This document shows positions 880 to 1,306 of a stretch of 63,158 bases of DNA, in pieces. The DNA comes from an uncultured Ruminococcus sp. (GTDB lineage: Bacteria; Bacillota; Clostridia; Oscillospirales; CAG-272), in the NCBI GenBank assembly GCA_964622425.1, contig CAZUQN010000004.1:1-63158 (forward strand), in the 5' to 3' direction. Numbering within the stretch: the stretch's first letter is position 1; every line of letters starts with the position of its first letter. The position numbers and the translations under genes were made by a program. The notes below the pieces were generated by a model. That model did no database searches. It was not told where the DNA came from and saw nothing but the letters and a program-made list of their open reading frames with translations.

Positions 880-956
880 CTGCTCGTAGCATAGCTGGAT
901 AATGCACAGGACTCCGACTCCTGAGACCGTAGGTTCGAATCCTATCGGGCAGGCCA
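880..956 (+). tRNA. tRNA-Arg, anticodon CCG
   Basis: Hand-folded 77-nt cloverleaf. Acceptor CTGCTCG/CGGGCAG (one G-U pair), U8, D stem GCAT/ATGC with a GG loop. Anticodon stem CAGGA/TCCTG with loop CT-CCG-AC. T arm GTAGG-TTCGAAT-CCTAT, discriminator G, encoded CCA. Confidence 0.85.
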
Positions 957-960
957 AAAG

Positions 961-989
961 AACGACAAGTTTCGGCTTGTCGTTTTTTT
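961..989 (+). terminator. Rho-independent terminator after tRNA-Arg
   Basis: AACGACAAG / CTTGTCGTT 9-bp stem, loop TTTCGG, followed by TTTTTT. Confidence 0.7.
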
Positions 990-991
990 AT

Positions 992-1264
992 CCATTGCGA
1001 AAGCAATGGCATATTTGCTATTCGTCGGTCGGACACGACGAATAACGCAATATACCGCAAGCGGTATGCATCACGCTTTAGCGTGTATATCATCCGTCTA
1101 AACGAGCATATCTCGTTTAGACGAGTATATCATCAACCACAGGTTGTATTGCTTTCGCAATGATGATATACAACACTTCATGTTGATGATATGCAAGGCT
1201 AACACCTTGATGATATACACGGCTATGCCGTGATTAAGGATGCGAGGGTTCAAATCCATCGGCT
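992..1264 (+). other. Array of ten short hairpins with conserved GATGATATAC linkers, ending in a tRNA T-arm-like fragment (candidate structured ncRNA or element remnant)
   Basis: Hairpins at 992-1009, 1020-1043, 1052-1067, 1072-1085, 1095-1123, 1134-1146, 1148-1161, 1171-1185, 1194-1209 and 1218-1232. Linker GATGATAT(A/G)C at 1162, 1185 and 1209; its complement TATATCAT at 1086 and 1126. GAGGG-TTCAAAT-CCATC at 1244-1260. Strand assigned from the + strand terminator that follows. Confidence 0.35.
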
Positions 1265-1281
1265 AAAAAATTAAGCGAAAA

Positions 1282-1303
1282 CTCCACCTTGTGTGGGGTT
1301 TTT
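1282..1303 (+). terminator. Rho-independent terminator closing the hairpin-array region
   Basis: CTCCAC / GTGGGG stem, loop CTTGT, then TTTTT. Confidence 0.5.
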
Positions 1304-1306
1304 ATT

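Follow-up and report, generated by a model that had tools for sequence, protein, structure and literature searches.

The DNA analysed here is a stretch of 63,158 nt from an uncultured Ruminococcus sp. (GenBank assembly GCA_964622425.1, contig CAZUQN010000004.1, positions 1 to 63,158), which is referred to as the window. It contains a tRNA-Arg(CCG) gene with an encoded CCA (954-956), detected by ARAGORN and by the Rfam tRNA model (62.8 bits). Ten hairpins follow this gene, and each of their stems is perfectly Watson-Crick. The array is bracketed by a two-way terminator in front and a second terminator behind (Table 1). The initial annotation had described the run at 992-1264 as a possible novel structured RNA of no recognised class; the ten hairpins are real, and every statement that it made about the sequence holds.

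Five words of the form GATGATATRC, two inverted and three direct, are interleaved with the perfect mini-hairpins. These are the only five copies in the 63 kb, all inside the array; 0.22 would be expected, and five were reached by none of 100 shuffles. On the + strand the word starts at 1162, 1185, and 1209; the inverted copies, which read GTATATCATC on this strand, start at 1085 and 1125. The count confirmed the three direct and two inverted words that had been noted at first. Segments 993-1007 (hairpin 1) and 1148-1162 are perfect reverse complements over 15 nt, in agreement with the complementarity reported earlier for hairpins 1 and 7. There are also two degenerate words, GCATATTTGC at 1009 and GTATGCATC at 1064.

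The predicted fold of 957-1310 has an energy of -141.9 kcal/mol, with z = -12.5 for the + strand and z = -10.9 for the - strand. Since z is strongly negative on both strands, the structure is palindromic at the DNA level. No ORF of at least 80 aa lies within 532-1369, in line with the earlier remark that the array has none, and no promoter was predicted within 690-1420. The T-arm-like end of the array is present as well, as GGGTTCAAATCC at 1246-1257 in the tail. This end, GGGTTCAAATCCATCGG in its longer form, is possibly a remnant of a tRNA 3' end. No second cloverleaf was detected by ARAGORN or the Rfam tRNA model, the tRNA at 880-956 being the sole detection.

Table 1. Features of the tRNA-Arg locus, in window coordinates.
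Feature	Position	Strand	Basis or remark
tRNA-Arg(CCG)	880..956	+	ARAGORN, Rfam; inserted element starts one base after the encoded CCA
Complete insertion of about 321 nt, made up of terminator, array of hairpins and words, and tail	957..1277	.	Global alignment with L201
Element-borne two-way intrinsic terminator: A-run, stem AAGAACGACAAG / CTTGTCGTT, T-run, ATCC	957..990	.	Sequence
Hairpin H1, CCATTGC-GAAA-GCAATGG; 5' arm and loop complementary to the central box	992..1009	.	Co-variation
Extra module: degenerate words GCATATTTGC and GTATGCATC with hairpins 1019-1044 and 1051-1067	1010..1071	.	Sequence; recurrence in L072
Hairpin CACGC-TTTA-GCGTG; position-specific homologue of ACGCnnnnGCGT hairpins in other copies	1072..1085	.	
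Word GTATATCATC (GATGATATAC on the - strand)	1085..1094	-	Word count
12-bp hairpin CGTCTAAACGAG-CATATC-CTCGTTTAGACG; the L018 homologue differs by compensated changes	1094..1125	.	
Word GTATATCATC	1125..1134	-	Word count
Hairpin CAACC-ACA-GGTTG	1134..1146	.	
Central box ATTGCTTTCGCAATG, reverse complement of H1; full 15-nt copy here	1147..1162	.	
Three + units GATGATATAC, GATGATATGC, GATGATATAC, each followed by a C-G-closed hairpin (1171-1185, 1194-1209, 1218-1232)	1162..1232	+	
Insertion tail, holding T-arm-like GGGTTCAAATCCATCGG (1246-1262)	1233..1277	.	Inside the segment missing from L201
Original tRNA terminator AAAACTCCACC-TTGTGT-GGGGTTTTTAT; outside the element	1278..1305	+	In L201 aligns with the sequence directly after CCA

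Distribution and placement of the family

The array belongs to a repeat family. When 185,579 species genomes were scanned for pairs of words separated by 9-18 nt, at least 120 loci with similar arrays were found. Among the matches listed, almost all hosts are gut or rumen Clostridia MAGs, from the Acutalibacteraceae, Oscillospiraceae, Christensenellaceae, and Ruminococcus. The canonical form among these matches, here informally termed the A-type cassette, is '---+++': three GTATATCATC words are followed by three GATGATATAC words. The start-to-start spacings of its words are about 23-25, 23-25, 38-45, 23-26, and 22-27 nt.

The window array reads '--+++' plus the degenerate words, and it has the mirrored half-arrays of the A-type cassette, their palindromic spacers closed by C-G. 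It shares the complementarity between H1 and the box, and carries its own two-way terminator right after the CCA. It lacks the outward promoter and the PF05635 gene that accompany complete copies. No promoter was predicted in 690-1420 and the window holds no PF05635 homologue, so this is a gene-less copy. Given the degenerate words, it is a slightly rearranged canonical 3+3 array with one extra two-hairpin module (1010-1070). This module is found twice, as the reverse complement, in locus L072 with 85-86% identity. The best match of the window copy among those listed is the array behind the tmRNA gene of L018 (78% identity over 180 nt).

Placement was judged on the 70 listed arrays with enough upstream sequence. 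Nearly half (34 of 70) begin downstream of a tRNA gene, of 14 isotypes in all, or of tmRNA, at 50-64 nt from the encoded CCA and in every case on the 3' side. One more array follows a tmRNA missed by ARAGORN; most of the remaining ones lie behind a tRNA or tmRNA 3' fragment that ends in ..CCA and runs directly into AAAAA. The linkage to tRNA that had been noted in the window is thus a property of the family. The T-arm-like end is not: the T-loop motif was found in 0 of 72 other family tails (background 0.005 per 140 nt), and this tail was rejected as clear proof of an att-type duplication. The gap of 50-64 nt consists of the two-way terminator and ATCC, and the same terminator types occur behind at least 5 tRNA isotypes and tmRNA. 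Because identical terminator sequences stand behind different isotypes, the terminator belongs to the repeat.

Several loci have a composite structure. In L037, L043, and L105, an intact tRNA is followed by another small element of about 190-240 nt, and then by a duplicate tRNA 3' end (..CCA) with an A-type cassette. This order suggests that serial insertions at tRNA 3' ends may push older cassettes downstream. One-directional A-type arrays of identical tandem units were found in L081 (828-1031, nine units), L062 (7-91), and L075 (7667-7795), so arrays also grow by unit duplication. In L042, L045, and L068, where no tRNA was found, the cassettes share a motif, tcNggttttcNcccagNtctttttcg...gac, that directly precedes them, about 40-100 nt before their terminator. 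This motif has no Rfam match at gathering score and may mark the 3' terminus of a further small RNA.

Viral sequences were also considered. Only 4 mirror arrays were identified in 2.9 million viral contigs, none of them with a PF05635 gene, and phages were rejected as cassette carriers on these counts. GenBank phages gave two distant PF05635 matches.

Hairpins, loops, and co-variation

A set of 170 distinct spacers between same-orientation neighbouring words was collected from the listed arrays. The spacer stems extend to the words on either side, closing with the final C of the one and the initial G of the other. Among 1197 stem positions, 1105 (92%) are Watson-Crick, 31 are G-T, 21 are A-C, and 40 are other combinations; dozens of different stem sequences occur. 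Such many distinct and yet paired stems indicate that pairing is kept through compensated change, with neither wobble pairs nor strand bias. Homologues with compensatory changes, on which the initial proposal of a structured element depended, are therefore available in number. The choice of an RNA strand from G-U versus A-C positions was rejected, as there is no bias (31 versus 21 of 1197).

Word-to-word spacing ranges from 19 to 31 nt or more. A constant arrangement of the 8-nt linkers (ATGATATA / TATATCAT) would be reached only in the folded state. The loop-closing pair is C-G in 134 of 159 hairpins. The loops are polar: G..A prevails in the '-' half (36 versus 4) and T..C in the '+' half (44 versus 0; Fisher's exact p = 1e-19). 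Loop polarity and C-G closure together define each unit as TATATCAT plus a C(G..A)G hairpin, placed on opposite strands in the two halves.

The cassette also has a long-range helix. In 60 of 75 copies, the box that precedes the first + word is complementary to the 5' arm and loop of H1; eight co-varying sequence types were counted. This H1/central-box helix is 91% paired, and 7 of 11 pairs have changes on both sides. Its co-variation score is 0.448, versus 0.157 in shuffles; none of 500 shuffles scored as high. The alternative long-range pairing between '-' and '+' words, raised in the initial annotation, did not gain such support. Across the family no co-variation was found between these words, the nested register is no better than others, and word variants are position-specific rather than mirrored. 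The word-word helices dominate the predicted MFE fold despite this absence of comparative support.

An empty site in a close relative

Orthologous loci were found by homology search with the flanking Hepar_II_III gene; an exact look-up of the flanking protein gave no match. A 92% identical Hepar_II_III orthologue is present in GCA_017453245.1 (locus L201). L201 shares the lipoprotein gene, the promoter, the heptad leader, tRNA-Arg(CCG), and the downstream terminators, and the flanks agree at about 97% identity. When the window and L201 were aligned globally, exactly 957-1277 (321 nt) proved to be missing from L201, the gap extending from just after CCA to just before AAACTCC. The L201 sequence continues straight from the CCA into TAACTCCCC..., which corresponds to window 1278-1305. 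From this exact absence, terminator, array, and tail form one insertion/deletion unit at the tRNA 3' end. The segment was probably inserted exactly behind the tRNA-Arg CCA, a reading of one empty-site comparison that by itself fits a precise deletion equally well.

More distant relatives were compared. In the relative at 80% identity (L202), a plain terminator follows the tRNA and the array is absent; in the relatives at 73%, the site lacks a tRNA altogether. The tRNA 3' end of the window differs from that of L201, and these differences fit ordinary drift because L202 shares the state of the window. Upstream of its tRNA-Arg(CCG), L202 (4421-5040, reverse complement) carries two incomplete tandem duplicates of the 5' part of this gene. 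These duplicates reach the anticodon arm, and each is fused to a hairpin module of about 190 nt; an A-type array is absent.

Other repeats surround the same gene. Between the promoter (655-683) and the tRNA, the window has a leader of about 190 nt (685-860) with AATGCGG-type heptads and GC-rich hairpins. The promoter and the leader are kept in L201, the differences being indels of about 7-20 nt that gain or lose heptads and a small hairpin module. The AATGCGG leader is a second fast-changing word-repeat family at this tRNA-Arg. A perfect 16-nt direct repeat, TTAATACTTAATTTCT, flanks the tRNA and the array at 866-881 and 1353-1368. It was ruled out as a target duplication of the 321-nt unit. 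L201 lacks it, with 7 nt missing where the first copy would be and 9 additional bases at the position of the second, and the edges of the indel are CCA and AAACTCC.

The partner gene

A conserved gene stands directly after 13-18 of the listed arrays (about one in seven). It is a 114-aa ORF, preceded by a conserved promoter of the form TTGATT-16/17-TATAAT, in which the -35 hexamer TTGATT is made up of the last hairpin arm and GATT. The ORF matches PF05635 (E = 1.7e-18), TIGR02436 (E = 4.6e-21), and the five-chain PDB entry 2RLD (E = 1.6e-35). PF05635 is the family of the 23S rRNA intervening-sequence protein, an Avd-like four-helix bundle. Distant homologues in the listed loci have other upstream words: GATTACATA at 59% protein identity, AATGAAT at 45%, and GTGAAG at 41%. 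In L010 (6800-7700, - strand), cassettes are arranged in series: a B-type array (GATTACATA), a promoter, a PF05635 gene (59%), a terminator, an A-type array, a promoter, and the next gene. No reverse transcriptase or template repeat was seen beside the PF05635 gene in the loci that were read, a non-systematic sample.

An independent set of 80 metagenome loci was picked by protein similarity alone, because selection by word was to be avoided. Upstream of nearly every gene of this set stand two half-arrays in opposed orientation, with 3-5 words; downstream arrays are almost entirely lacking. The protein tree and the words are congruent: the 8 word classes need 8 changes on the tree (minimum 7), versus 30-34 in shuffles (ten of 300). 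As judged from this tree, each PF05635 clade in the metagenome set has its own word. Such congruence could come from physical linkage alone, and does not prove recognition. For some of the other word classes, 13-34 nt separate the array from the start codon and the array abuts the ribosome-binding site, which suggests that it is transcribed there.

Truncated or frameshifted clade-A PF05635 genes were found in L013 (74 aa), L022 (about 50 aa), and L070 (85 aa). They fit frequent decay of the gene while the array persists. Solo copies such as that of the window have intact words, and their stems are perfect though diverged. That words are kept while stems diverge argues for a trans-acting reader of the words. 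PF05635 proteins have no known sequence specificity or catalytic activity, which weighs against this family as word reader and as the enzyme that would move the unit. Full-text searches found no literature that links these proteins with word arrays.

Proposed explanation and alternatives

Segment 992-1264 is the core of a gene-less copy, about 321 nt long, of a word-and-hairpin cassette lodged behind the tRNA-Arg CCA. Membership of the family, the layout of the cassette, its presence or absence at the tRNA end, its linkage to the PF05635 gene, and the congruence of words with PF05635 clades are shown by the results above. We consider it probable that the cassette behaves as a selfish or mobile element of small size, lodging where stable-RNA genes end (3'); its words would be read in the folded single-stranded state, with a PF05635 oligomer as the best reader candidate. 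In the cassette, a two-way terminator is followed by H1, three TATATCAT units with C-G-closed mini-hairpins, the H1-complementary box, and three mirror-image units. Complete copies add the promoter, whose -35 TTGATT comes from the last unit, and the 114-aa PF05635 gene. The array may work in the form of folded single-stranded DNA, or else perhaps of RNA made by read-through. Its hairpins, which vary in length, would fold away, and the 8-nt words would then be displayed at constant geometry to a word-specific reader acting in trans. Owing to the mirror design, each strand would receive one half of 'native' units. The terminator and, in other copies, the outward promoter would be by-products. 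The reading step itself, with a PF05635 oligomer as its best candidate, is put forward more tentatively; we give it somewhat less than an even chance. Against a folded-DNA reading, stems as short as 5-7 bp do not readily extrude from a duplex. The absence of a PF05635 gene from the 63 kb also counts against the proposal.

The arrays might instead be host-domesticated intergenic repeats of the REP/BIME kind. They would be independent of PF05635, their conserved words would be bound by a host protein, and as stacks of stable hairpins behind strongly transcribed stable-RNA genes they would serve as back-up two-way terminators, as insulators of transcription or supercoiling, or as blocks to 3' exonucleases. 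This would suit the position of the array, always between a two-way terminator and the next promoter or terminator, the mirror design with stems lacking strand bias, and the outward promoter (TTGATT-17-TATAAT) that many copies supply. About 85% of the listed copies also have no adjacent PF05635 gene. However, the original tRNA terminator still stands behind the window array, so the array is not needed for termination. Neither the presence or absence of the array between close relatives nor the upstream word array that every PF05635 clade has of its own would be explained, and we regard such a host function as unlikely. Rather less probable is a structured non-coding RNA, produced by read-through from the tRNA operon or, in copies that carry the gene, as its 5' UTR, which might act as a protein sponge or scaffold, or as a processing substrate like the 23S intervening sequences. 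The initial proposal was of this kind. A conserved, structured, non-coding element is indeed present, with a strong fold (z = -12.5), compensated stem changes, and C-G-closed G..A loops that are favourable in RNA too. The word classes that end 13-34 nt before a start codon leave no room for a promoter, and Rfam classes the sister family Gut-1 as an sRNA (PMC2864571). The idea of a free-standing RNA gene was not supported: the element is a multi-copy repeat, is absent from L201, stands between a two-way terminator and a further one, and has no predicted promoter in 690-1420. G-U and A-C pairs are similarly rare, the favourable loops switch strand from one half to the other, and no co-variation was found for the word-word helices that prevail in the predicted RNA fold. 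In the A-type class, the strong terminator in front, the conserved promoter behind, and the loop polarity flipped between the halves argue against a simple sRNA.

Two further models concern DNA alone. If the words were a duplex operator or iteron array, 10-bp sites would bind a regulator (PF05635 or other) of the adjacent promoter, and solo copies would be decayed remnants. The words do stand immediately before a conserved promoter, the -35 of which overlaps the last unit, and they are congruent with the protein clades. But a spacing of 19 to 31 nt or more gives no helical phasing, solo copies retain intact words and perfect stems, and a duplex model leaves unexplained both the polar loops and the palindromic spacers that close at the word borders. 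This makes an operator array quite improbable. Least credible of all, and very improbable, is a leftover attachment-site arm of a larger integrative element at the tRNA-Arg 3' end, with the words as arm-type sites for an integrase or excisionase. It would account for the location at a tRNA 3' end, the T-arm-like fragment at the distal end of the insertion, and the serial insertions that duplicate tRNA 3' ends at other loci. Yet the whole difference from the empty site is 321 nt without an integrase gene, and complete 3+3 arrays stand behind 14 isotypes among the listed arrays without island genes. T-arm-like tails are not a family feature, and drift suffices for the differences of the tRNA 3' end from L201.

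Compared with these alternatives, the mobile cassette with a word reader is the preferred explanation. The locus and its empty-site relative present hairpin arrays as discrete units that come and go at tRNA ends. One architecture is found across many word classes, and each class travels with its own PF05635 clade; an unexplained motif thereby becomes a testable pair of protein and nucleic-acid word. The cassette is also a source of terminators and promoters beside stable-RNA genes in gut Clostridia. If the PF05635 protein reads the words, it might represent a new, compact, and apparently reprogrammable type of sequence recognition.

A broader reading may be considered, although we hold it to be doubtful. 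In general, stand-alone PF05635 (Avd-like) oligomers might recognise, in a sequence-specific manner, words of 7-10 nt that folded single strands display between mini-hairpins. With their arrays they would form an unrecognised class of minimal selfish cassettes targeting the 3' ends of stable RNAs (tRNA and tmRNA here; 23S rRNA in other phyla). If this were true, Gut-1, the ORFs of the 23S rRNA intervening sequences, and the heptamer-repeat arrays of bacteria would be one phenomenon. On this reading, the choice of a generic tRNA or tmRNA end as target hints at an insertion step guided by RNA or by structure. To our knowledge, Gut-1-type orphan repeats and PF05635 intervening-sequence proteins have been without a function for 15-30 years.

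Comparison with known RNAs and repeats

The Rfam scan gave nothing in 992-1264, either at gathering score or at E <= 10, and the first impression that no known RNA class is present was therefore right. Membership of Gut-1 (RF01706) was rejected: there is no match in 560-1400 at E <= 10, nor in the whole window (gathering score 50 bits). True Gut-1 matches of 74 and 68.8 bits were found in L045 and L070, on separate arrays with another word. In these loci (L045, 1650-1950; L070, 190-480), the Gut-1 match spans the first half only of an element in which about four copies of TGAAATA are followed by about four copies of ATTTCAT. The Rfam model of Gut-1 (77 nt) seems to describe one half of a mirrored element.

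In Gut-1 and the A-type cassette alike, a short conserved word alternates with variable mini-hairpins and a mirrored half follows, an architecture that the window array shares. Both occur in the same organisms and the same places; the Gut-1 copy of L070 lies between a tRNA-Arg terminator and an A-type array. Moreover, the Gut-1 word (G)TGAAAT is the upstream word of one PF05635 clade. The difference lies in the word, which is TGAAATAT in Gut-1 and GATGATATAC in the window type. Weinberg et al. (2010, PMC2864571) list Gut-1 among orphan candidates for non-coding RNAs, known solely from human gut sequences, and mention neither a function nor a protein partner nor a link to tRNA genes. Gut-1 is the only described relative of the word-hairpin cassette, which is otherwise almost undescribed.

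Short fixed intergenic words are also known from the TAACTGA heptamer direct repeats of Beggiatoaceae and cyanobacteria, which are described as intergenic, without an assigned function, and spread between distant lineages (PMC4679880). The AATGCGG heptads of the window (about 690-760) are of the same kind. The TAACTGA repeats are mostly direct and lack hairpin spacers, and the abstract of that paper mentions no link to PF05635 (PMC4679880). A CRISPR array, with direct repeats of about 24-48 nt separated by unique, non-palindromic spacers of comparable length, was ruled out: the repeats here are 10 nt long and switch orientation, and the spacers are palindromic and 9-20 nt long. The features of a free-standing sRNA gene are likewise missing, given the lack of a predicted promoter, the G-T and A-C counts (31 versus 21), and the loop polarity that flips between the halves.

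Intervening sequences of 23S rRNA with an S23p/IVP ORF occur in Leptospira and Coxiella, and the DGR accessory protein Avd is related. These proteins belong to the same family as the cassette gene (PF05635/TIGR02436). The intervening sequences are also small cassettes in or at a stable-RNA gene, bounded by foldable inverted repeats. However, the cassette lies behind tRNA or tmRNA, not inside rRNA, and its inverted arrays are upstream of the gene instead of around it. The window copy, unlike the S23p/IVP cassettes, carries no gene.

The REP/BIME/REPIN elements of proteobacteria are short intergenic units, in which a single-stranded conserved word stands beside a hairpin with compensated stem variation. 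The units are arranged in inverted orientation and often lie after terminators; many copies are gene-less, and few stand beside a dedicated small gene. Their hallmarks are the RAYT gene (TnpA-REP, a Y1 HUH transposase) and a GTAG-type word 5' of the palindrome. Together with RAYT they are the nearest functional analogy, as word plus hairpin, inversion, gene-less copies, and the other general traits are all common to the cassette. The gene of the cassette, by contrast, encodes a PF05635 four-helix bundle and not a Y1 HUH transposase. The cassette is further distinguished by its 3+3 arrays, its enclosing long-range helix, its strict placement at the CCA of tRNA and tmRNA, and its occurrence in another phylum.
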